A DNA stretch of 64,000 nt from an uncultured archaeon (GCA_964347045.1 CAYFXC010000001.1:32001-96000), one strand, 5' to 3'. Numbered from the stretch's first letter, positions 21,567 to 36,882 are shown. The notes: generated by a model not told the origin, from the sequence alone. Numbers and translations: made by a program.

Positions 21567-23981
21567 GTGAATAAGAAGTTGGAGATAATGGGGCATAGCA
21601 TGCTACTCAAAGAAAAACGATGGAAACCGGAAATCGAAGAAGAAATCCTGAAAATCTGGACCAAAAACAAAATCTACGCCTTTAACAAAGATACACCAAA
21701 TCCGGTGTATTCTGTTGATACGCCACCACCCTATCTAAGTGGACCCTGGCATGTTGGCGGTTCAATTCACTATACCCAAATCGATATGATCGCCCGAACC
21801 AAGCGCATGGAAGGACATGATGTTATTTTTCCTATGGGGTTGGACCGAAATGGATTACCCATTGAAGTACAGGTTGAAAAAGCATACAACAAAAGTATGC
21901 ATGAAATCCCTCGACAGCAATTTCTTGAATTATGTGCTGAATTCTTGGATCGTAATGAAGCCCTAATTGTGGCCCATGCCCAACGCCTTGGACTCAGTTG
22001 TAATTCCTTCAAAGACGATGAAATGTATCGAACTGATAGCCCCCAATATCGTGCGGTTACCCAACGCACCTTTATCGAACTATACAAGAAAGGTCTCATC
22101 TACATTGATAATCGGCCCAACAACTGGTGTCCTGAATGCGGAACCACGATAGCAGACGCAGAAGTTGAATACAAGGACATAGAAACTATTCTATTAACTC
22201 TCAAGTTTATTATCAAAGAAACCGGAGACGAATTACCCATAGCAACAACACGTCCTGAGCTTCTCTCAGCATGTGCTGCTGTTTTGGTAAATCCTGATGA
22301 TGAGAGGTACTTACATCTCCACGGAAAAACTGCGATTACACCCTTGTATGAGAAGCGCGTTCCTATTATTCCTCATCCTGAAGCGCGTATTGAATTCGGG
22401 ACCGGCGTCGTCATGGTTTGTAGTTATGGAGATTACACAGATGTTCGACTTTTCAGAGAATTACAGCTAGAACCTATCAATGCCTTGGGTCCTGATGGTA
22501 AAATGACTAAGGTGACAGGGTCATATGAAGGATTAGCTGTCACAGAAGCACGTAAAGCTATCCTCAAAGATTTGAAAGAAAAGAACCTGATTCTGAAACA
22601 AGAGTCCACCATTCATCGAACCCCAACTTGTTGGCGCAGTCGGAATCCCATTGAATTTATCGCCATGCCTGAATATTATTTGAAGCAGATTCAATTCATC
22701 GATGACCTCCGAGTCGTTGTCGATCAAATGACCTTTTTCCCCTTAAAGAATAAACAGATTCTAGTAGACTGGATTAACAGTGTTAGTCGTGATTGGCCCA
22801 TTAGCCGACGCCGATACTATGGTACCGAAGTCCCCCTTTGGTACTGTAAGAAATGTAATGAAACCATCGTTCCGCCACCAGGTCCCTACTATCAACCTTG
22901 GAAGAATCCTCCACCAATCAAGAAATGCCCAAAATGTGGAAATGCTGATCAATTTGAGGGCGAAACCCGAACCTTAGACACTTGGATGGATTCGTCTATT
23001 AGTGGTCTTATCACAATCTTCTACACTGAAGATGATGAATTCTTTCAACAACACTTTCCAACAAGTATTCGACCACAAGGTAAAGACATTGTCCGAACTT
23101 GGCTTTACTACTCTGTCTTGCGCGTCTACCAACTCTTTCAAGCACCTGCCTTCAAATTCGTCTGGATTAGTGGGCATGGGCTTGACGAAAAAGGTGAAGC
23201 CATGAGTAAATCTAGGGGCAACGCCATCGATCCGAATCCAATTATAGAAAAATATGGTGCTGACGCCTTCCGCCTATGGGGCGCTCTCGAAGCCTCCCTC
23301 GGCTCTGACTACAGATTCAACGAGGGACGTCTCGCTGGTGCTCATCGCTTCCTAACAAAACTTTGGAACGTCTCACGGTTCATCTCTGGATTCCCCCAAC
23401 CTAAAGTTAGCACCACCAATCTTCACCCTGCTGATCATTGGATTCTCTCCGAGCTAAATCATATTATTACGCGGGCAAAAGCAGGATACGCTAGACTAGA
23501 TTTCATTATTCCATCTCGCGAACTACGTATTTTCACATGGGATCTTTTTGCCAGCCATTATCTCGAACTCGTTAAGGGTCGTGCCTATTCCGAACAAGAT
23601 AAGATAGGGCAAGCCGCTGCATGGTACACTCTCCACATGGTCCTCAAAGCCATCCTAAAGCTCCTTGCTCCCATTTGTCCTTATATCACTGATAAGATTC
23701 ACCGCGAATTATATGACAAGAAAACCTCCATTCATAAACTCAAGTTTCCTGAAATCTTCAAAGGCATCAGTGAGGAGCACCCAACCGAAATGTTGACCCA
23801 ATTCAACGCTGATATCTGGAAACACAAAAAAGACCAGAAAATAAGTCTTCGTGAAGCGCTTCCCAATGTTACTGCACCAAAGATTCTGAAACCCTATGCA
23901 GAAGACCTCCAACGCATGCATAACATCCAATCTATCAAGTTCCATTCAAAGGATAACACACAAATACCCCCAGCCAAATAA
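21567..23981 (+). CDS. valS: Valine--tRNA ligase
   Basis: DTPPPY, HVGG, ATTRPE, DWPISRRR, MSKS. Confidence 0.95.
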   Translation: MNKKLEIMGHSMLLKEKRWKPEIEEEILKIWTKNKIYAFNKDTPNPVYSVDTPPPYLSGPWHVGGSIHYTQIDMIARTKRMEGHDVIFPMGLDRNGLPIEVQVEKAYNKSMHEIPRQQFLELCAEFLDRNEALIVAHAQRLGLSCNSFKDDEMYRTDSPQYRAVTQRTFIELYKKGLIYIDNRPNNWCPECGTTIADAEVEYKDIETILLTLKFIIKETGDELPIATTRPELLSACAAVLVNPDDERYLHLHGKTAITPLYEKRVPIIPHPEARIEFGTGVVMVCSYGDYTDVRLFRELQLEPINALGPDGKMTKVTGSYEGLAVTEARKAILKDLKEKNLILKQESTIHRTPTCWRSRNPIEFIAMPEYYLKQIQFIDDLRVVVDQMTFFPLKNKQILVDWINSVSRDWPISRRRYYGTEVPLWYCKKCNETIVPPPGPYYQPWKNPPPIKKCPKCGNADQFEGETRTLDTWMDSSISGLITIFYTEDDEFFQQHFPTSIRPQGKDIVRTWLYYSVLRVYQLFQAPAFKFVWISGHGLDEKGEAMSKSRGNAIDPNPIIEKYGADAFRLWGALEASLGSDYRFNEGRLAGAHRFLTKLWNVSRFISGFPQPKVSTTNLHPADHWILSELNHIITRAKAGYARLDFIIPSRELRIFTWDLFASHYLELVKGRAYSEQDKIGQAAAWYTLHMVLKAILKLLAPICPYITDKIHRELYDKKTSIHKLKFPEIFKGISEEHPTEMLTQFNADIWKHKKDQKISLREALPNVTAPKILKPYAEDLQRMHNIQSIKFHSKDNTQIPPAK

Positions 23982-23995
23982 CCTCGCAACCCTTT

Positions 23996-24070
23996 GGGGT
24001 GGTAGATCAATGGTAGATCGCGTGCCTCGCACGCACGAGGTTCCGGGTTCAAGTCCCGGCCACTCCACCA
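23996..24070 (+). tRNA. tRNA-Ala(CGC)
   Basis: Cloverleaf with G3:U70, loop CT-CGC-AC, encoded CCA. Confidence 0.96.
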
Positions 24071-24145
24071 ATCAGCATCATCCCGATTCTCTGGCAAAAC
24101 TCATATAAACGTAGAACACCACGCCCAACAACACGAATTTCTTGT

Positions 24146-24222
24146 GGGTCGGTGGCCTAGCCTGGTAGGGCACTCGGCTGATAACCGAGAGGTCGCGGGT
24201 TCGAAGCCCGTCCGACCCACCA
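24146..24222 (+). tRNA. tRNA-Ile(GAT)
   Basis: Cloverleaf, loop CT-GAT-AA, encoded CCA, downstream T-tract. Confidence 0.96.
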
Positions 24223-24366
24223 CTTTTTAGTTATTTAACTCGTTAATTTTCAAAAAAAATACCATCAAAACGAATTTTCAGGTCACAAACTTGCATCAGA
24301 TCTCAGTGGTTTATATGACTCTATACAAGTGCCTTTCTTAGAAAAACCCCTCAGGAGGCAATTTAC

Positions 24367-24405
24367 ATGTATCCACCCCGACCCCCTTGTCCTGTTCCAT
24401 CCTAG
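24367..24405 (+). CDS. Proline-rich micropeptide MYPPRPPCPVPS
   Basis: TATA (TTTATATG, 24310), SD AGGAGG (24353), downstream T-rich terminator; similar to two other MYP ORFs. Confidence 0.6.
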   Translation: MYPPRPPCPVPS

Positions 24406-24431
24406 TTATAACTCATTTTTCCTTTCTTTTT

Positions 24432-26168
24432 TTAGACTTTTGATTTTAACTTTGGTAATGTATTATCGTCCCATTTCCATGCTCCTAGTTCAAAATCATA
24501 ATTTTTTGGTAAAACTGGTGTCTCCAACCCCGAATAAGATTGCCAGACAGGTCTTGCTTCTAGGGATGCATTAATTTCATTTTTTGCAAATGTCTTCCGT
24601 AATGTCGAAAGTACATCTACCGCTTGACTATTCGTAACGTGGGCAAAGACATATGCATATCCGTTTTCAAGGACCACCGCGTTTTGATATGGCAACAAAT
24701 GTAATGTTTTCAAAACATAGTCTGTAACTGTTCGAGGTTCAAAAATGCGAATTAGTAATGCGGTATTAAGTCCAACGTGGTGCAATATTATTCCATTATT
24801 TTTACTTATTTGCAAACGTTCCAATTTCTTTATTCGACGACGATATCGCATATGCATTGACTCTGAAATCCCCAATGTACGGAGTTCCTGTGATGATTGT
24901 GAGGTAACTCGATTTGTTAATAGAATGTTATCAAAAGTACGCCTAAAATATGTGAAATCTTCAATTTGTAACTTAAGCGGGAAGTCGCTTTGTTTCAGAA
25001 GGTCATATGAGTATTCAGCATATTGAATCGGGGATGGCTGATCATGTACAAAGTTTGAATCTAATGACTCGATCCTATTGAGAAGAAGAGAAGAATCAAG
25101 AGGCCATCCCTTTTCTGGAGTATAAGACTCTAAATTCCAATAATTAATATTTTGAGAGTCTGCGATTGCTTGAACGTTTCCTATTCCTTCACTCCGTGTT
25201 AGTTTTTCTAGCCAATCAGAAAAATGCATGCGTTGATTTTGTGGGATTAGAAATCTGCAATGAACCGTGTTGCTTTGTAATGTTTGTATGAAAAAGACAT
25301 ATCGGATTGCTGAGATGAGATTTGATAATCGTTGTGCTATTTTCTTGCTAGTAGCTTGGAAAAAAACCTCTAGTGGAATTAATCCAATCAAGGGCACGTC
25401 AATAAATTTGGACAGACGGAGAAGATGACGTTGTGCGAGGTTAGTTAGATGTTGGCTGAGCCCGGAAACACTCATGTTGAGTTGCTTGGCGAGACGGCTT
25501 TGGTGGAGAGGAGTGATTACATTACTGAGGGTCGTAAGGATTTGGTGTTCAGGATGTGTGAGAAGGATGTGGGTTTCGATCATCCAGCGTTCGAGGGCGT
25601 TAGTATAGGTTGGTGTGGAGAGAGGAGTACCTGTTGTGGTAGGGCGAAGAGTGTTAAGCCAGAAAAGAACTCGGTTAAGAAAGGCCCCAGAGACAACGCC
25701 ATCAAAGAGAGGAAAACCGGAAGGCGCATCATAGACATAATATTGATAATGTTGGGGTGGGGAGACTTGCTTCCAAAGTGTGGTAAGCTCCGTTTTTTCA
25801 ATGGCACTATAATCTCCATATTTGAGACCAAGATAGAGACCGAGATCAGCGGTTTCGGAGATTTGACGTAGGTGGGGTAAAAGAAGGCTAAGGAGAGCTT
25901 CACGCCATATCACCCAGTCTAATACATGCGAGGGAGCTTGTTGAAGGTCTTGAGCGAGAGTTACTTGCCAGCCGCCACGCGGACGTTCTTCTAGTGAAGT
26001 TTCTACGGCTCCAAATCGTGGATAGTCATAGACCAAGGGAAAGTCATTCCATAAGAAGCTGAGAATTCGATCCCGTAGTCGGGGGAGAGGTTCGACTGTG
26101 AGCTCAGTAATTATCCAATCCTGTTTTTTACGGAATTGTTGCATGAGCTCACGAAATCGTTTCGACAC
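24432..26168 (-). CDS. Large regulator-like protein: N-terminal WREA/ADLGLY domain, central wHTH, tandem Lrp/AsnC-like C-terminal region
   Basis: HTH QSRLAKQLNMSVSGLSQHLTNL; full-length paralogue of 26545-28257. Confidence 0.7.
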   Translation of the reverse strand: MSKRFRELMQQFRKKQDWIITELTVEPLPRLRDRILSFLWNDFPLVYDYPRFGAVETSLEERPRGGWQVTLAQDLQQAPSHVLDWVIWREALLSLLLPHLRQISETADLGLYLGLKYGDYSAIEKTELTTLWKQVSPPQHYQYYVYDAPSGFPLFDGVVSGAFLNRVLFWLNTLRPTTTGTPLSTPTYTNALERWMIETHILLTHPEHQILTTLSNVITPLHQSRLAKQLNMSVSGLSQHLTNLAQRHLLRLSKFIDVPLIGLIPLEVFFQATSKKIAQRLSNLISAIRYVFFIQTLQSNTVHCRFLIPQNQRMHFSDWLEKLTRSEGIGNVQAIADSQNINYWNLESYTPEKGWPLDSSLLLNRIESLDSNFVHDQPSPIQYAEYSYDLLKQSDFPLKLQIEDFTYFRRTFDNILLTNRVTSQSSQELRTLGISESMHMRYRRRIKKLERLQISKNNGIILHHVGLNTALLIRIFEPRTVTDYVLKTLHLLPYQNAVVLENGYAYVFAHVTNSQAVDVLSTLRKTFAKNEINASLEARPVWQSYSGLETPVLPKNYDFELGAWKWDDNTLPKLKSKV

Positions 26169-26242
26169 AATTCAGCCTTCCATTTACATGATGATATAAA
26201 ACCGTTAAGCGAATTCTACCTTCCACTGATACTTTTAGTAAT

Positions 26243-26272
26243 AAAAAAGAAAGGGAAACCTGTTCGGTTTCC
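26243..26272 (-). terminator. Hairpin plus U-tract terminator downstream of the MYPPRRPEPL peptide gene
   Basis: Minus strand GGAAACC-GAACA-GGTTTCC followed by CTTTCTTTTTT. Confidence 0.6.
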
Positions 26273-26362
26273 GGTATTCAACACACTTGTTCTGGGTGAG
26301 AGTAGTACGTGTTAAAAGCTTCTAAAATTGGATGAGATGGTTACTAGAATCACTTCTATTTA

Positions 26363-26395
26363 TTAAAGAGGTTCTGGTCGACGTGGGGGATACAT
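26363..26395 (-). CDS. Proline-rich micropeptide MYPPRRPEPL
   Basis: SD GGAGG (26407-26411), TATA TTTATATG, leader shares TACAAGTGC and GGAGGCA with the 24367 unit. Confidence 0.6.
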   Translation of the reverse strand: MYPPRRPEPL

Positions 26396-26544
26396 GGTTT
26401 AGGATGCCTCCAAGCACTTGTAACCATGTCGAACTCAATTTTCCATATAAACTAAAAGTCACCGTTGCAAAAAAAGCCAAAAAATGTTGTTAGAAATGAA
26501 AAAAATTGTGTAACTTTACAATTGCAAAACCTATGATTGATTAT

Positions 26545-28257
26545 TTAGGGAAGGGTATCTTTTGTCCATACCCAATCCTCACGATCAAAATCATAATTAC
26601 GAATTTGGATTGGCTCAGTGGTCCAACCGTACGCTTCCCAAGCGGGTTTAATCGAAATTATTGATGGTATGTTATTATCTTTGAATAATTGTGAAAGTGC
26701 ATTTTGTACAGATATTGCTGATTCTCTTGGTAAGAGTAAAGAAGCGCTCCCAGTTCCATCATTGAAAATATTTCCGACAATATGTGGAAGTAATTGTAAA
26801 GCTGTAAGTACTCTTTTTGTTTCTTTTTCATTACTCTCGATAAGTAAATGGATTATGGTGTTCAATCCAATATGCATAATACTAATTCCAAGGGGAGGAC
26901 TCATCACCTCGCGTTTTTCCAAATAATTCACGCGGCGTCTATAGGCCATGTGTTGGGTTTCTTTATATCCAGCCAATCTCGCTTCTTCTGCCTCGTAAAA
27001 ACGTGCACGATCAGTTATAAAATACACATCTGTTGCTCTTTGCATATAGATGAAATCAGACGGTTTAATGCTTATTCGCTGAGAAGAGGGTGATAATTTG
27101 AAAGAGTTTAATGGTGGAAGGTGTTGTGTCCATTTTCCACTAATCAGTCTTGAAACATTATCGAGTACAGCTTCCGAATCTGTAACCCAACCACCCTTGT
27201 TAGAATTGTATAAATCAAAATTTCTTGATTGTAATCTTTCAGTTCTGATCCGAATTTCAGGCACGGAAAGATCATGAAGAGCGACAAATTGTTTTACCCA
27301 TTGACGAAATCTTGTAATTCGTCGAATTGGTATTGCGAAATAAGAGATTAAGGCATCATCGAATTCTTGTATTCCTAGGGTGTAACGAATTTTTGAGAGA
27401 ATGTTCTTTAATGAAATTGTCTTCCTCATATCGCTTACAGGGAAGGTAACAGCAAAAGGTTCGAGACCAATTACTCTGAAATTTGTGAAAGATACCGGTC
27501 TTAGTTGATGTTTTTCTGCAAGTCGTTTGATAACTTGACTTATTGTTGGTTGCCTTAATTTGAGTTTGTCAACGAGCTCTGACTGTGAGCAAGTGGGACA
27601 AGAATTTAATCCACGGAGAATTTTGAGCTCAAGAGGCCTGAGCAGTCTGTTATAGTTAAACATCCACCGCTCGAGGTTTGCAGTATAGGTTTCGGTAGTC
27701 ATAGTTGTTAGCAGCTGATTGAAAGGCTTGAACCATCGTTTGGCTTTTCGAAGAAACGCTCCGTCAACAACCCTATCAAAAGAAGCGAATCCCGCCGTTG
27801 GATAATATCGGTAAGTTGGGTAGTCAATTGGCGGAGATACGGTTTCCCAAACTTGTAGGAATCGGTGACGTTGTTTAGGGTTTTTTATTCCATATCTGTA
27901 ATAACAGTATAAACCGAGATCCGCCGCCTGTTCTACTTGACGAATAACTGAGGGAAGATGGAGTAGGTAGGCTTCACGCCAAAGAATGGGTATAAGGTAG
28001 TTTTGGAACTGAGAGAGAAGATTCTGTGAAAGGCTAAGGATCACCTGGCTGTTAGAGTTAATAGATTCAGTAACACCGAATCGCGGTCCATTGAGTTCGA
28101 AGGGAGATGGAATAAAAGTAATAGTCGTATACCGGTCAAGAGGCGGAGATTTTAGAATTTTTTGAAGAGTCGTTGTAATTGTTGTGAATGCTTCGATGGC
28201 TTCCGCTTGTTGGTGATAAATGGAATCGGTTTGATTTGTTGTCTTTTCGAAAGTCAT
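26545..28257 (-). CDS. Large regulator-like protein (WREA domain, wHTH, Lrp/AsnC-like repeats), paralogue of 24432-26168
   Basis: Shared PRFG, WREA, ADLGLY, LERWM, YRRR and NYDF...W.W motifs; HTH QSELVDKLKLRQPTISQVIKRL. Confidence 0.7.
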   Translation of the reverse strand: MTFEKTTNQTDSIYHQQAEAIEAFTTITTTLQKILKSPPLDRYTTITFIPSPFELNGPRFGVTESINSNSQVILSLSQNLLSQFQNYLIPILWREAYLLHLPSVIRQVEQAADLGLYCYYRYGIKNPKQRHRFLQVWETVSPPIDYPTYRYYPTAGFASFDRVVDGAFLRKAKRWFKPFNQLLTTMTTETYTANLERWMFNYNRLLRPLELKILRGLNSCPTCSQSELVDKLKLRQPTISQVIKRLAEKHQLRPVSFTNFRVIGLEPFAVTFPVSDMRKTISLKNILSKIRYTLGIQEFDDALISYFAIPIRRITRFRQWVKQFVALHDLSVPEIRIRTERLQSRNFDLYNSNKGGWVTDSEAVLDNVSRLISGKWTQHLPPLNSFKLSPSSQRISIKPSDFIYMQRATDVYFITDRARFYEAEEARLAGYKETQHMAYRRRVNYLEKREVMSPPLGISIMHIGLNTIIHLLIESNEKETKRVLTALQLLPHIVGNIFNDGTGSASLLLPRESAISVQNALSQLFKDNNIPSIISIKPAWEAYGWTTEPIQIRNYDFDREDWVWTKDTLP

Positions 28258-28481
28258 GGATTTTAATTTCCTGTTAATGTTTCTCCCAAGAACATGACTA
28301 CATGAGTTCTTGAGTTCTTAATAATATTCGGAGATTCTGTACTGTAGTTTCGCGTGGAGTTTTTCTATGAATCCGTCTTTGGATGATTGACGCGACTGCT
28401 TGGTCGTAGTCCGGGTGGCTAAGCGATGTGTAGTACGTGGGATGAATTGATGCCTCGTTCATGACGGGCTATGCATTTCCT

Positions 28482-28550
28482 TTATTTGGATCCGACTGCA
28501 AATCGAGGGTCCGGAATTGGACCGGGGGTATAGATTGGTGGTCGGCGCAC
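28482..28550 (-). CDS. Proline-rich micropeptide MRRPPIYTPGPIPDPRFAVGSK (GTG start)
   Basis: Same position upstream of a regulator gene as MYPPRRPEPL; TATA-like TTGATAAA about 26 nt upstream (leaderless). Confidence 0.4.
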   Translation of the reverse strand: MRRPPIYTPGPIPDPRFAVGSK

Positions 28551-28606
28551 AGCCACTGCGTCCGTAATTTTATCAACATTTTCGATATTCGTTGCAGAAA
28601 AAAGAA

Positions 28607-28684
28607 TGGTAGCGGGGAGTTGATTTGAACAACTGATCTCGGGGTTATGAGCCCCGCGGGATATCCTGGCTACCCCACCCCGCT
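28607..28684 (-). tRNA. Initiator tRNA-Met(CAT)
   Basis: A1:U72, AGCGGGG start, GGG/CCC anticodon stem, loop CT-CAT-AA, encoded CCA. Confidence 0.96.
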
Positions 28685-28837
28685 AATGGATTGTTGATAG
28701 AGAAGAGCTGGTGAGGTCGATTTAAGCTTTATGCCTTGGTTTTTGTGTTTCTTTTCATCCAAAAAGTTTCGATACTATAGTGCTAAATTTTTGTGGAGGT
28801 TAAATAATAACTTCCATATACATTGCTGGTGAACTTT

Positions 28838-28876
28838 ATGTATCCAAGACCTGGAGACGAACCTGGTCCATTGTAA
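28838..28876 (+). CDS. Proline-rich micropeptide MYPRPGDEPGPL
   Basis: SD GGTGA upstream, TATA-like GTTAAATA at about 28799; third MYP peptide. Confidence 0.6.
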   Translation: MYPRPGDEPGPL

Positions 28877-28908
28877 TAGATTGTTGAGTTTTTACATTAT
28901 AATTCGCT

Positions 28909-29982
28909 TCAGGTTCTCCTTAGGAGACGAATCAAGGCACGAGGTACTTCTGTATAGGAGTTGACTTTGATATAGCGCCCGCGACCAAGCTGAGCTATGT
29001 TTTTACAGGTTTCTTCTCCTTGGGGATGAGTTCCTGGTGTTTGGAGGACATGGAGATTATGGTATTTTCTAGCATATGGTTCAGGAGGTTCTCCACGGTT
29101 TGCGATACCATCGGTAATGAGAATTGCCCAAGATTCATGGCGATGCGCCCGTTTGAATTGAATGTAAGCGGTCTCAAGTGCATCGGAAATATTGGTGTAA
29201 CCTGCAGGTTCAGTATCAAGTATTGTGTCTACAATTTGATCAATTGTGGTATATTGGTCCATTGCTTTGATGGTACTAGCTACTGTGTTGAAAGCGATGA
29301 GGGCATATTTATCGTGTCGGAGATGATAGGCTGCAACAGCAGCTGCGGTAGCGGCCGTTAGTAGTTTGGGTCCAGCCATGGATCCCGAAGTATCAAGAAT
29401 TATGGTTCCAATTTTTTTTCTTGCAACTCGTTCAATACCTATTATGTCAGAGTAATTTACGTAATCCGGTTTGAGCAGTGTTTCTTCCAGTGTATTATCG
29501 AGGTCAAATTCGTCGAGGCCTGGATGGAATGGAACCTGTTTGATTTTTTCTGGTCGGAGTCCACGCCCAGTAATTCGTAGGGCTGAATGGACTATTGTGG
29601 CTCTAGCGAGTTGTCGGAACGTTTGGCGATATTGTCCTCGAATTTGGTTTCTGAGTTGGAAAAATAGCAAAGGCCCAGCGACATTTCCTTCACGGGCGGA
29701 TTTCGCAATGAGATGAACCCCGTCTTGTGTTGAAATAGCCTCACTTGTTGCAATGGGTTGAAGTTGGGCAAGGGCTTGAAGAGCGGGGATATTTCCAAGT
29801 TCTATGGCAATTTCAGCCATCTCTTTGGCGGTGGGATAATCAAAGCTTCGACCCAAACGGAGATAGTATTGAAAATCGCGTCCGCTAGCTCGGATTTCAG
29901 ATTCGAATAGTTTCTCATCTGAGATGAAGCCGGAAAGCACAATTGGCACGTCATCGGAGGACGGCGCCTCCTCGGTGATCAA
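28909..29982 (-). CDS. von Willebrand factor A domain protein (CoxE-like)
   Basis: MIDAS DTSGSM, T and ITDG motifs. Confidence 0.88.
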   Translation of the reverse strand: MITEEAPSSDDVPIVLSGFISDEKLFESEIRASGRDFQYYLRLGRSFDYPTAKEMAEIAIELGNIPALQALAQLQPIATSEAISTQDGVHLIAKSAREGNVAGPLLFFQLRNQIRGQYRQTFRQLARATIVHSALRITGRGLRPEKIKQVPFHPGLDEFDLDNTLEETLLKPDYVNYSDIIGIERVARKKIGTIILDTSGSMAGPKLLTAATAAAVAAYHLRHDKYALIAFNTVASTIKAMDQYTTIDQIVDTILDTEPAGYTNISDALETAYIQFKRAHRHESWAILITDGIANRGEPPEPYARKYHNLHVLQTPGTHPQGEETCKNIAQLGRGRYIKVNSYTEVPRALIRLLRRT

Positions 29983-30827
29983 AAATTTGCCAATACTGCC
30001 TTTACCAAAGTTTTGATTACGTCTACAGGTGATTTTTGGGTGTTATCATGAAGTTCAATCTTGGGAACTAAAGACATTATGGCGGCTTCTTCCCAGATGG
30101 AATGACCTTCACCAGGTATTTGTGTATAGAGACTAGCGATGTCGAGAGCCCCTCTGACACTGGCACCGCGTCGAATATCGGTGTAATCTCGCGTGGCACG
30201 AGTAATCGCGACTGCGATATTAACAATTTCCTCATCTTTGATTCCAGTATTCGTATGCACAATGTCTCTCTCTTGCTCTTCGGTGTGATAATCTAAATAT
30301 AGCCAAACGTAACGGTCTCGGAGTGCTTCACCCAGTGGTGTAACTCCTACACTAGCTTCCGGATTCTGCGTTGCAATGATACGGAACCCGTTTTGTGCGT
30401 TGACTGTTCCTAGTTTTGGAACATGTAAGCGGCCTTCATCCATAACAGGCAAGAGAGTGTTTTGTGTGGCTTCGGGCATGCGATTAATTTCGTTGATAAA
30501 TAGGACACCCCCATTTTCCATGGTTTCAACAAGGGGACCGGGAATGAAAGTATTTCGAGTGTAGCCATCTTTTAATACAACAGGAGGATCAAACCATCCC
30601 ACGAGCTTAGCGGAAGTATATCTTTCATCACCATCAACTCGGAAGAAAGTTCGACCTAAATAATCTGCGACCGCTGACGCAATTGTGGTCTTTCCAACTC
30701 CCACGGGACCTTCAATGAGTAAATGTTTATTGGCATTATCAGCGGCCAGACATTGGGTAATGATTTCATTTCGCCCGATGATTTTGTATTTCCGTTGAAT
30801 AGTTGTAACATCTTTGGTTAAAGACAT
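29979..30827 (-). CDS. MoxR/CoxD-family AAA+ ATPase
   Basis: GPVGVGKT, FINEINR, ATQNP, ALRDR; overlaps the vWA gene. Confidence 0.9.
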   Translation of the reverse strand: MSLTKDVTTIQRKYKIIGRNEIITQCLAADNANKHLLIEGPVGVGKTTIASAVADYLGRTFFRVDGDERYTSAKLVGWFDPPVVLKDGYTRNTFIPGPLVETMENGGVLFINEINRMPEATQNTLLPVMDEGRLHVPKLGTVNAQNGFRIIATQNPEASVGVTPLGEALRDRYVWLYLDYHTEEQERDIVHTNTGIKDEEIVNIAVAITRATRDYTDIRRGASVRGALDIASLYTQIPGEGHSIWEEAAIMSLVPKIELHDNTQKSPVDVIKTLVKAVLANF

Positions 30828-30948
30828 GCGTTTTCACCTTAATGCGTTTTAAAATCTATTTTTTGAAGTAAAGTATTTGGGTATTATCTCAAGATTCTGG
30901 AATGAAAAAGAATGTTTATTGGGCACGAAAATCATATTTTAATGTTCT

Positions 30949-31045
30949 GCGGAGTTGGCGGAGCGGTAACGCGCTGGACTCGAGATGAACCGGGTCATCC
31001 AGTGACCTTTTGGTCGCAAGGGTTCAAATCCCTTACTCCGCGCCA
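30949..31045 (+). tRNA. tRNA-Ser(CGA) with a 12-nt canonical 37/38 intron (30985-30996)
   Basis: Long variable arm, G73, BHB CTCG/CGGG, encoded CCA. Confidence 0.92.
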
Positions 31046-31056
31046 ACCTTTTTTCG

Positions 31057-32022
31057 CTATATTACAAGATCCGCGATATCAATACTAGATTCAAAGATTC
31101 GTTCCAGGTTATGAACGACACGATCATAAACTGCCAACACTGCTGTCTCCTGTTTCGCAATAACTTCAGTAATCTCAATAACAAGGGTATTAATCGTCTC
31201 TTCTAATTCTATCACACTTCGTGCACGAGCGCTATCCTGTTGCAAAACTGCTGTAATTGCTTCACGGTGAGCGAGTATTACCTTTTCACTAAATTTGGTC
31301 AGAACACGTGAAAAATGTCGGGGTGGAATAACATAATCTTTAGAAAGTACTTGTTCAGCGATACTTGAACATCCGTCAGCGATGGCCTCAACTTCTTTAG
31401 CTACAAGTCTATAATCCAGCAAATCTAATGGAGACAGTAAAAGGTCACCAATGGGTGATGCAATGGCTTTCCGAAGTTGTCGAACAACAAGGAAATAAAT
31501 TCGATCGACTTCGCGATCCCTGTCTCTTACATCTTGCGCAAGTTCTTGATCATTACGAATAAAGGCGCGAATTGCGTCTTCATGCATTTTTGCAGCAATC
31601 CCATATGTTCGTCGGAGATAGGTAATTGAATCAATGCTTCTAGGGATAAGGCATTGAAGAGTCATCTTTGATGCGTCTTCTTCCATGATTTCGACACCAA
31701 CGAGAAAATCAGCCATTCTCTTGACCTCTCGTTTTATTGCTGGAGTCATTGCCTTCCCCAAATTGATCTCTATCACATTATTACCTGCCAAATATCCGGC
31801 AAGAATTTCCCTGGCTACATTTGATGGATCTGTAATCACACTTCGTTGACGAAGAGGTTCCTCGGCTAGCCCTGGATCAATAATAAGCATGCCATCAGCT
31901 CGTTCGTGAACTAAAATCATTGACCCTTTTTTCAAACCGTTGGAGTCAACCCAATGTTTGGGTACCGATAAGAGATATGATGCACCTACACGTTGTAATT
32001 TACGAGCTTCCATATGAATCAC
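31057..32022 (-). CDS. phoU: AbrB-PhoU phosphate uptake regulator
   Basis: RKLQRVG.SY..S.PK.W, DREVDRIYFL. Confidence 0.85.
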   Translation of the reverse strand: MIHMEARKLQRVGASYLLSVPKHWVDSNGLKKGSMILVHERADGMLIIDPGLAEEPLRQRSVITDPSNVAREILAGYLAGNNVIEINLGKAMTPAIKREVKRMADFLVGVEIMEEDASKMTLQCLIPRSIDSITYLRRTYGIAAKMHEDAIRAFIRNDQELAQDVRDRDREVDRIYFLVVRQLRKAIASPIGDLLLSPLDLLDYRLVAKEVEAIADGCSSIAEQVLSKDYVIPPRHFSRVLTKFSEKVILAHREAITAVLQQDSARARSVIELEETINTLVIEITEVIAKQETAVLAVYDRVVHNLERIFESSIDIADLVI

Positions 32023-36518: not shown

Positions 36519-36882
36519 TGACCAAAATTTTTGATCTACGATTTTTAATTCATAAAAATTTAGCACTATAGTAATAAACTTTTTACACTAATGTGAATTT
36601 AAAAAAAGAATTAACCTAATAGTGGTTTGATCAGATGCTGGTTACTCCCCTTCGTTTCCACTGGAACTCGAAGAACAAGAAAAGTTGGTGGTTGTTTTTT
36701 TAAGTTCGAAGAATCTTCCCCAGTTGTTTTCACACTATCTTCTATAAATAGTTTACAGTCTCTCAATAGCGTATTTTAGTGTTCTAGATAATGGTTTTGC
36801 GCATTTTACGTTAAGCTGAAAGGGTAACAAAATAGTCAATAAATAAGAAGTTCCAGTGGAAATAAAGGGGCTTATCTAATTA

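Follow-up and report, generated by a model that had tools for sequence, protein, structure and literature searches.

A window of 64,000 nucleotides from the genome of an uncultured archaeon (GCA_964347045.1, CAYFXC010000001.1:32001-96000) carries, between a tRNA-Ile gene and a gene for a vWA protein, three unannotated Pro-rich open reading frames (ORFs) of 10-12 codons, termed A1, A2, and B, together with the genes for two large paralogous proteins, g1 and g2. Judged by the substitutions among relatives, the three micro-ORFs are real, conserved coding genes under selection at the protein level, and comparison of genomes indicates that they occur exclusively linked to the family of g1 and g2. 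The large proteins are, according to structure models, best described as a pseudo-peptidase joined to a double Lrp/AsnC body. We tentatively propose that peptides and regulators constitute one module, in which the dead-peptidase domain would be the target of stable, trans-acting peptides, while the micro-genes would be under control of the regulators.

Rarity of the micro-ORFs and selection on the encoded peptides

An earlier note on this DNA had placed three micro-ORFs with a common Met-Tyr-Pro start at 24367 (+), 26395 (-), and 28838 (+), and all three were found there. The note had also remarked that the start ATG-TAT-CC is met nowhere else in the window. This was correct, as ATGTATCC was counted three times, at the three micro-ORF starts; 1.96 copies were expected. 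At least three copies occurred in 32 of 100 shuffles, and the window count by itself is not significant; genome-wide, ATGTAYCC was present at 121 sites. The sequence context of the three micro-ORFs is far beyond chance. The whole 2.58-Mb assembly was scanned for ORFs of 8-40 codons outside ORFs of at least 100 amino acids (aa), with at least 30% Pro and a Shine-Dalgarno (SD) motif (GGAGG, GGTGA, GAGGT, or AGGAG) no more than 18 nt upstream. Exactly three ORFs were returned: A1, A2, and B.

Two kinds of peptide were distinguished. Type A peptides have 10-12 aa and follow M-[YWF]-P-P-x-R-P-[DE]-P-x; the type B peptide reads M-Y-P-x-P-G-D-E-P-G-P-L. Homologues stood at matching positions in every relative whose contig spans the locus. 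A1 orthologues were found at the 3' end of g1 in 15 genomes (consensus M-Y-P-[PAQ]-R-[DHP]-P-[F..]-P-x), A2 orthologues in 12 genomes (M-[WY]-P-P-[RS]-[RH]-P-[DE]-P-x), and B in all 14 genus-level genomes covering the site (M-Y-P-x-P-G-[DET]-E-[PI]-G-P-L, followed by 0-19 extra residues). With nhmmer models comprising promoter plus ORF, A-type elements were detected in each of the 17 genomes whose g1/g2 locus had been retrieved, mostly at two sites. No further A- or B-type copies were found by nhmmer elsewhere in the archaeon's own genome, and no larger protein in this genome carries the peptide motifs.

The synonymous-conservation test called for in the earlier note gave a clear result. Ratios of nonsynonymous to synonymous differences (pN/pS; Nei-Gojobori, all pairs) were 0.32 for B and 0.53 for A in frame and 1.41-1.65 in the two shifted frames. 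Column entropy at codon positions 1, 2, and 3 amounted to 0.44, 0.41, and 1.11 for B and to 0.58, 0.87, and 1.39 for A, such that the third position exceeded the first two by ~2.5-fold (B) and 1.6-2.4-fold (A). The same peptide was encoded with three or four synonymous differences between genomes; a conserved C-terminal Ser is specified by TCC in one genome and by AGT in another; the A1 orthologue of genome G002 preserves the peptide despite synonymous differences that include such a Ser switch. ORF length and the non-Pro positions (the aromatic residue 2, Arg, Asp/Glu, and the C-terminal residue) were conserved, and the start codon alternated among ATG, GTG, and TTG at a fixed position. Low pN/pS in frame only, tolerance of synonymous changes, and entropy concentrated in position 3 indicate that selection acts on the peptide and not on an RNA or a DNA site. 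It is extremely improbable that the micro-ORFs are no genes at all, that is, incidental short ORFs within conserved promoter or RNA elements. The ORFs are tiny and their promoter regions are conserved too, as such a view would have it, but the three-base substitution periodicity, the in-frame ratios, the conserved ORF length, the variable start codons at a fixed position, and the switch between Ser codon families speak against it. By the coding-selection result, this alternative is nearly refuted.

Some genomes differ in copy number or peptide length. A2 is tandemly duplicated, each copy with its own SD, in G002, G008, and G010 (L043:2031-2210, L041:6142-6330, and L037:5629-5810). In three genomes, the conserved 12-mer of B is followed by a hydrophobic, transmembrane-like helix that brings the peptide to 31 aa (L045:8284-8376; same site in L044 and L046). 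The B tails of other genomes are short and unrelated, with 7 residues.

A fourth Pro-rich ORF that the earlier note had reported from this region (28550, -) does exist, but it was unconserved in 10 of the 10 relatives compared. It was rejected as a member of the system, being genome-specific with its frame broken by indels in relatives. It overlies a non-coding block of ~200 nt between tRNA-Met and the g2 promoter (28330-28570, -), which is conserved in six genomes. Its stems are conserved but show little covariation, Rfam gave no match for it, and it contains GAGGCATC, which resembles the A-type SD. In a sister genus, an intact A-type micro-ORF lies at the same position. The block may be a decayed micro-gene or a non-coding RNA.

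Arrangement of the locus and expression signals

The features of the locus are listed below by window position.

24146-24222 (+): tRNA-Ile(GAU), preceded by tRNA-Ala
24291-24358 (+): predicted A1 promoter and 5' leader, with TTGCA at 24291-24295, TATA box TTTATAT at 24310-24316, and SD AGGAGG at 24353-24358
24367-24405 (+): micro-gene A1, encoding MYPPRPPCPVPS in 12 codons before the stop; its 3' end and that of g1 converge
~24416-24436 (+): T-rich terminator, 3' of A1
24432-26168 (-): g1, 578 aa; N-domain, Lrp/AsnC module 1 (winged helix-turn-helix plus RAM), Lrp/AsnC-like module 2, Trp-rich tail
26240-26274 (-): hairpin plus T-run terminator of A2, with a separate g1 promoter further downstream
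26395-26363 (-): micro-gene A2, encoding MYPPRRPEPL in 10 codons before the stop; in the gap between g2 and g1, same strand as both
26407-26411, 26445-26451, and ~26465-26472 (-): A2 promoter signals, namely SD GGAGG, TATA box, and TTGCA box
26545-28257 (-): g2, 570 aa; built like its paralogue g1
28607-28684 (-): tRNA-Met, separating g2 from micro-gene B
28767-28832 (+): predicted B promoter and leader; motif at 28767-28788 with core GATACTATAGTGC at 28771-28783
28800-28809 and 28828-28832 (+): A/T box and SD GGTGA of B
28838-28876 (+): micro-gene B, encoding MYPRPGDEPGPL in 12 codons before the stop; its 3' end and that of the vWA gene converge
28909-29982 (-): vWA gene
29979-30827 (-): gene for MoxR, an AAA+ protein

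Genes for eRF1 and a class I aminoacyl-tRNA synthetase lie upstream of the locus, and a PhoU-like gene is a further neighbor. Rfam recognized only tRNAs over 23500-31500, and PADLOC returned nothing meaningful.

Each micro-ORF had been described as carrying a TATA box and an SD, and TATA-like boxes along with AGGAGG, GGAGG, and GGTGA were indeed found. Alignment of 27 A-type promoters yielded a common layout: TTTTTGCA, 13 nt, TTTAWA, ~40 nt, GGAGGCATC, 5-8 nt, and the start codon. A distal and less conserved TGCAAAAA lies ~45 nt upstream of the TTTTTGCA box. A run of at least five T residues followed no more than 130 nt downstream in 23 of 29 A-type ORFs, often after a hairpin with a folding energy of -10 to -20 kcal/mol. 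Downstream of the A2 terminator, g1 is served by a conserved promoter block of its own (TATA box plus SD). By these signals the A genes are predicted to be autonomous units with their own promoter, SD, and, mostly, terminator. The A-promoter box pair had no further sites in the genome.

Promoter, SD, and sequence set type B apart from type A, and most B genes are without terminator. Its upstream motif, with the core GATACTATAGTGC, is conserved in 14 of the 14 genus-level relatives covering the site. Five of the 14 B genes have a run of at least five T residues before transcription would enter the vWA gene antisense; within the 130-150 nt scanned past the stop, none was seen in the other nine. 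A weak nhmmer match of the B promoter motif on contig 21 was dropped, as it lies inside an ORF of 301 aa. An inverted copy of the 34-nt motif region (28762-28795), 82% identical, is located 7.7 kb away in an intergenic stretch (36551-36584); no micro-ORF follows it.

TTGCA and TGCAA are the half-sites of the archaeal Lrp-type regulator Ss-LrpB (TTGCAAAATTTGCAA; PMC1802622). Because the box shared by the A promoters has this half-site sequence, it suggests that the double-Lrp proteins g1 and g2 bind the TTGCA-type boxes of the A promoters.

Architecture of g1 and g2

As the earlier note had it, g1 and g2 are two paralogues of about 570 aa; they were 30% identical over 545 aa (E 2e-68). An AlphaFold2 model of g2, computed from an alignment of 39 sequences, reached a pLDDT of 89.7 and a pTM of 0.85. 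The architecture of g1 was deduced from this model of its paralogue and from the family alignment. The helix-turn-helix and Lrp/AsnC-like repeats claimed for the proteins were recovered. Residues 201-332 of g2 matched the entire Lrp/AsnC protein 2dbb (residues 2-139; PDB profile, E 2.9e-5), and Pfam placed MarR/HTH_24 matches at residues 207-249. In Foldseek, the best whole-chain match was NirDL (4ch7; E 1e-7, TM 0.51 by target, 13-14% identity), and many single Lrp/AsnC regulators followed with probability 1.0. The chain thus consists of an N-domain of ~200 aa, two fused Lrp/AsnC modules, and a Trp-rich tail, and is not a single module of ~150 aa.

The N-domain (205 residues) was also modelled alone, with a pLDDT of 92.2. 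In VIA-align, it matched tricorn factor F3 (1z1w) with Z 9.9 and a root mean square deviation of 4.5, 175 of 205 residues being aligned. LTA4H (5fwq) and puromycin-sensitive aminopeptidase both gave Z 9.6, TAF2 8.1, and thermolysin 7.9; nine chains had Z of at least 8 among the matches listed, and the best 50 were nearly all zincins. An ESM Atlas search returned YgjP, M48, and SprT zincins (TM 0.4-0.47). The earlier suggestion that a WREA motif is a degenerate zincin helix was thereby supported at the level of the fold, with Z up to 9.9. At the sequence level, no peptidase match was obtained from Pfam or from PDB profiles at E up to 10, and hhalign of the N-domain to an M1 alignment was not significant (probability 0.1). 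TAF2 is the inactive M1-like subunit of eukaryotic TFIID; its Z of 8.1 to g2 residues 1-205 (window 27643-28257, -) is not above that of true peptidases, so no specific relationship can be claimed.

None of 32 aligned family members has HExxH in the N-domain. Helix 85-98, which stands in place of the active-site helix, bears invariant W93, R94, E95, and L98 (R-E-x-x-L), and D113 and Y117 are on the following helix. In zincins, a Glu ~19-24 residues past the motif is the third zinc ligand, and M1 enzymes have GxMEN in addition. From the order of helices and the spacing of the motif, R94 and L98 would occupy the positions of the two His residues of HExxH. FGxxE (60-64) fell on the M1 GAMEN strand in an hhalign match of five columns, which was non-significant. 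The most conserved residues of the domain are situated on elements of the zincin cleft, namely RFG before the edge strand, W93, R94, and E95, and D113 and G115. In the model, the N-domain is described as a zincin fold that appears to have lost the zinc histidines. Among 1.84 billion proteins, its family comprised 48 cluster representatives, nearly all of 530-590 aa and of the same architecture; by these searches the regulator family appears to be tiny and restricted to Asgard archaea.

Linkage of micro-genes and regulators across genomes

The organism belongs to an Asgard lineage; homologues of g2 in databases bear the labels Thorarchaeota, Hermodarchaeia, or Promethearchaeota. Regulator family members were present in 18 of 18 other genomes of the class in our collection, 16 of them with the g2-g1 tandem, and the order eRF1, aminoacyl-tRNA synthetase, tRNAs, g1/g2 block, tRNA-Met, vWA, and MoxR is kept among relatives. 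In G001 and G003 (L036, L038), the block of A1, g1, and g2 has been turned around with respect to the tRNA and vWA genes on either side; A1 has kept its place beside g1 in these inversions. No tRNA-Met was detected in these two loci. A sister genus has A-type ORFs upstream of g2 and downstream of g1 and a 12-codon B-like ORF with a GGTGA SD at the vWA end.

In another family, represented by G019 and a metagenomic contig, tandem regulators adjoin a Pro/Trp-rich ORF of 21-26 codons (L089:4603+, L091:360+) that has a GGTGA SD in front and a T-run terminator behind. Upstream of a second G019 regulator, at a distance of 200 nt, lies a Pro/Trp/Asp-rich ORF of 23 codons, also with a GGTGA SD (L101:4638-), and L099:2317- is a further candidate beside a distant regulator. 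No vWA or MoxR gene was present at these distant-family loci. Across all arrangements, the orientation of micro-genes to their neighbors varies between convergent, tandem, and divergent. Distant regulator homologues adjoin cas6 in G019 (L089:4735-5595) and cas2-cas1 on a metagenomic contig (L093:1809-3049), which suggests that some module members are CRISPR-linked.

Proposed mechanism and alternatives

In the module that we tentatively propose, transcription of the type A and type B micro-genes would start at their own promoters, and translation would yield Pro-rich peptides of 10-12 residues that remain unprocessed and whose X-Pro bonds would make them resistant to general peptidases. The peptides would act in trans and most likely dock in the substrate cleft of the dead zincin N-domain of g1 and g2. 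Docking would alter DNA binding by the two fused Lrp/AsnC modules, and g1 and g2 would control the micro-gene promoters via the shared TTGCA-type box, closing a feedback loop. We infer translation in vivo, binding of the peptides to the domain, occupancy of the operators, the sign of regulation, and retention of the peptides in the cell. A trans-acting peptide rather than a cis leader is favored because the A genes appear autonomous, positions and orientations shift, selection covers the whole peptide, and length is conserved. Judged from the model, the dead zincin cleft would be the only peptide-binding scaffold in the locus and its obvious peptide surface. That the deca- and dodecapeptides are, more specifically, unprocessed Asgard signalling molecules read by a transcription factor with a recycled, M1/thermolysin-like dead peptidase cleft seems quite unlikely.

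Several observations weigh against the proposed module. The earlier note had expected micro-ORFs near homologous regulators, and this was so at all 17 fetched loci and at some distant members. A third, more distant paralogue, however, had no flanking Pro-rich micro-ORF in 11 genomes that also carry the micro-genes' regulators, and none was found at the regulator loci of family f5, G297, G110, and G365. Because of these cases, the regulator fold does not need an adjacent peptide gene. Type B resembles type A little beyond M-Y-P, mostly lacks a terminator (5 of 14 have one), and runs antisense into the vWA gene; it may work differently from type A. The mapping of the HExxH residues relies on helix position and spacing, the alignment not being significant (hhalign probability 0.1). 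Moreover, Lrp RAM domains normally sense amino acids, and a ligand other than a peptide is possible. Co-folding of the 31-aa B orthologue of G014 with its g2 scored 0.00 and gave no answer, speaking neither for nor against binding.

The main rival to the feedback module is a role directed at the ribosome, which we consider unlikely. Here, the act of translating an SD-driven Pro-rich mini-ORF would matter, either as a CreT-like toxin or as a sensor of aIF5A, polyamines, or Pro-tRNA, and the regulators would serve as a transcriptional guard. The strong SD, the Pro codons in a mini-ORF, and the stabilizing hairpin are indeed shared with CreT of Pseudomonas aeruginosa (bioRxiv 10.64898/2026.06.02.729485), distant regulator homologues adjoin cas6 and cas2/cas1, and the locus lies among translation genes (eRF1, the class I aminoacyl-tRNA synthetase, tRNAs). 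CreT, however, requires two consecutive Pro codons just before the stop (bioRxiv 10.64898/2026.06.02.729485), whereas the ORFs described here end in non-Pro residues, and several A1 orthologues (MYPARDPFPS, MYPQRDPFPS) as well as type B are devoid of Pro-Pro. Non-Pro positions and length are conserved, and a sensor of aIF5A or polyamines would leave the conserved aromatic, Arg, acidic, and C-terminal positions unexplained. The four Pro codons are interchangeable, so that no single tRNA is targeted. No CRISPR array was found in the window and no cas gene among the neighboring genes scanned.

The trans-acting peptides could instead have their target outside the regulator pair, for instance in the ribosome exit tunnel (in an apidaecin-like manner), the membrane, or MoxR-vWA, with g1 and g2 as mere switches; this, too, is unlikely. 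Such a role would suit the position of B at the vWA 3' end in every arrangement and the hydrophobic helix behind the 12-mer in three genomes. The Pro/Arg-rich composition recalls ribosome-binding Pro-rich peptides (PMC11549390), and the operator-like box common to the A promoters implies regulation. On the other side, B-like ORFs of the distant family f2 stand beside regulators without vWA or MoxR, the lack of the peptide motifs in larger proteins of the genome leaves no obvious target of mimicry, and the model offers the dead peptidase cleft as the obvious peptide-binding surface of the locus. We regard it as very unlikely that the micro-genes are cis-acting leader or antisense devices, A2 attenuating g1, A1 and B heading antisense into g1 and vWA, and translation setting the read-through. 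A2 does precede g1 on the strand that both share, a hairpin and T-run separating the two, A1 converges with g1 and B with vWA, and nine of 14 B genes show no T run within the distance scanned. Yet g1 has its own conserved TATA box and SD after the A2 terminator, which is up to ~110 nt past the stop and so too far for occlusion by the ribosome; from genus to genus, the micro-genes change place and orientation but still encode the conserved peptide; and selection at the peptide level spans the entire ORF.

Comparison with known systems

The earlier note had likened the locus to the RRNPP systems of Bacillota and their phages (PlcR-PapR, Rgg-SHP, AimR-AimP). The likeness holds in that a very short peptide gene with its own signals adjoins a cytoplasmic helix-turn-helix regulator, regulator and peptide genes occur as paralogous copies in one locus, and the peptide gene may be tandem, convergent, or divergent. 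It fails in the receptor, which is here a dead zincin with a double Lrp/AsnC body and not a TPR protein, no TPR being found in Pfam or fold searches. RRNPP systems are defined by secretion, processing, re-import, and cell-cell signalling, with a mature signal of 5-10 aa. Here, 10-12 codons leave no room for a signal or leader sequence, there is no sign of export or processing, an Opp-type importer is absent from the vicinity, and the host is an archaeon.

A typical Lrp/AsnC protein is a single module of ~150 aa that assembles as dimers or octamers. Residues 201-332 of g2 correspond to the helix-turn-helix plus RAM module of PH0061 (2dbb), ST1022, and Ss-LrpB, and the TTGCA-type boxes resemble the Ss-LrpB half-sites, but two modules are combined in one chain of 570-578 aa with an N-domain and a Trp-rich tail. 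Two Lrp-like modules also make up the siroheme decarboxylase NirDL/AhbAB, an enzyme of heme d1 or alternative-heme gene clusters, and the fold matched that of the fused NirDL (4ch7); no nir or ahb gene was recognized among the neighbors examined. With zincins (M1 proteins such as F3 and LTA4H, thermolysin, and the pseudo-enzyme TAF2), the N-domain shares the fold of the catalytic domain, with its mixed sheet, active-site helix, and Glu helix, over ~175 of 205 residues (Z 9.9-7.9). It differs in the invariant R-E-x-x-L instead of HExxH, in the absence of similarity at the sequence level, and in its fusion to DNA-binding modules. IrrE/PprI and ImmA-type systems likewise combine a zincin fold and a helix-turn-helix in one regulatory system, and PprI (8slm) was among the weak Foldseek matches. 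Their zincins are active proteases that cleave a repressor, whereas the zinc ligands appear lost here and the partners are Lrp/AsnC modules.

CreT of the P. aeruginosa type I-F CreTA system resembles the micro-genes in its strong SD, Pro-codon mini-ORF, and downstream hairpin, and some distant regulator loci are cas-adjacent. It is, however, a mini-ORF of five codons ending in Pro-Pro-stop, unlike the 10-12 codons here with the whole peptide under selection. CreA and CRISPR are absent from this locus (no tandem-repeat array in the window), and the proposed repressor is a protein and not Cascade. Leader-peptide attenuators differ as well. Their ORF belongs to the 5' leader of the gene that is regulated, and terminator and antiterminator structures alternate. 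Here, A2 alone precedes a neighbor in the same direction, g1 retains a separate promoter after the A2 terminator, and A1 and B are convergent with their neighbors.

In the literature on small or Pro-rich peptides of Asgard archaea or Thorarchaeota and on archaeal RRNPP analogues, no description of this module, of Pro-rich micro-genes in Asgard archaea, or of archaeal regulators that sense peptides was found. To our knowledge, annotation hardly ever includes independent protein genes of 10-12 codons, and a function is known for very few of them. The genes described here form an entire family on which purifying selection is clear and which is linked to a single lineage-specific family of regulators. 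They would also show that functional micro-genes of Asgard genomes are systematically missed by gene callers. If the dead-peptidase domain bound the peptides as its ligands, a pseudo-enzyme would be sensing ligands by a new principle, and the first peptide-responsive transcription circuit in Archaea would emerge. Should the signalling reading be true, Archaea would be shown for the first time to have a transcription factor that senses peptides, and perhaps also cell-cell communication by peptides, and this in the lineage nearest to eukaryotes. Were the ribosome the target, proline-codon RNA toxins or eIF5A-type sensors would have their first counterparts in archaea. Under either reading, synthetic peptides would allow tests of this compact module.

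A further tRNA gene

Between the MoxR gene and the PhoU-like gene lies a tRNA of 97 nt (30949-31045, +; Rfam tRNA, 53 bits). ARAGORN assigned no anticodon to it, and its relatives are inconsistently called Ser, Thr, Leu, or His. This tRNA probably contains an intron.

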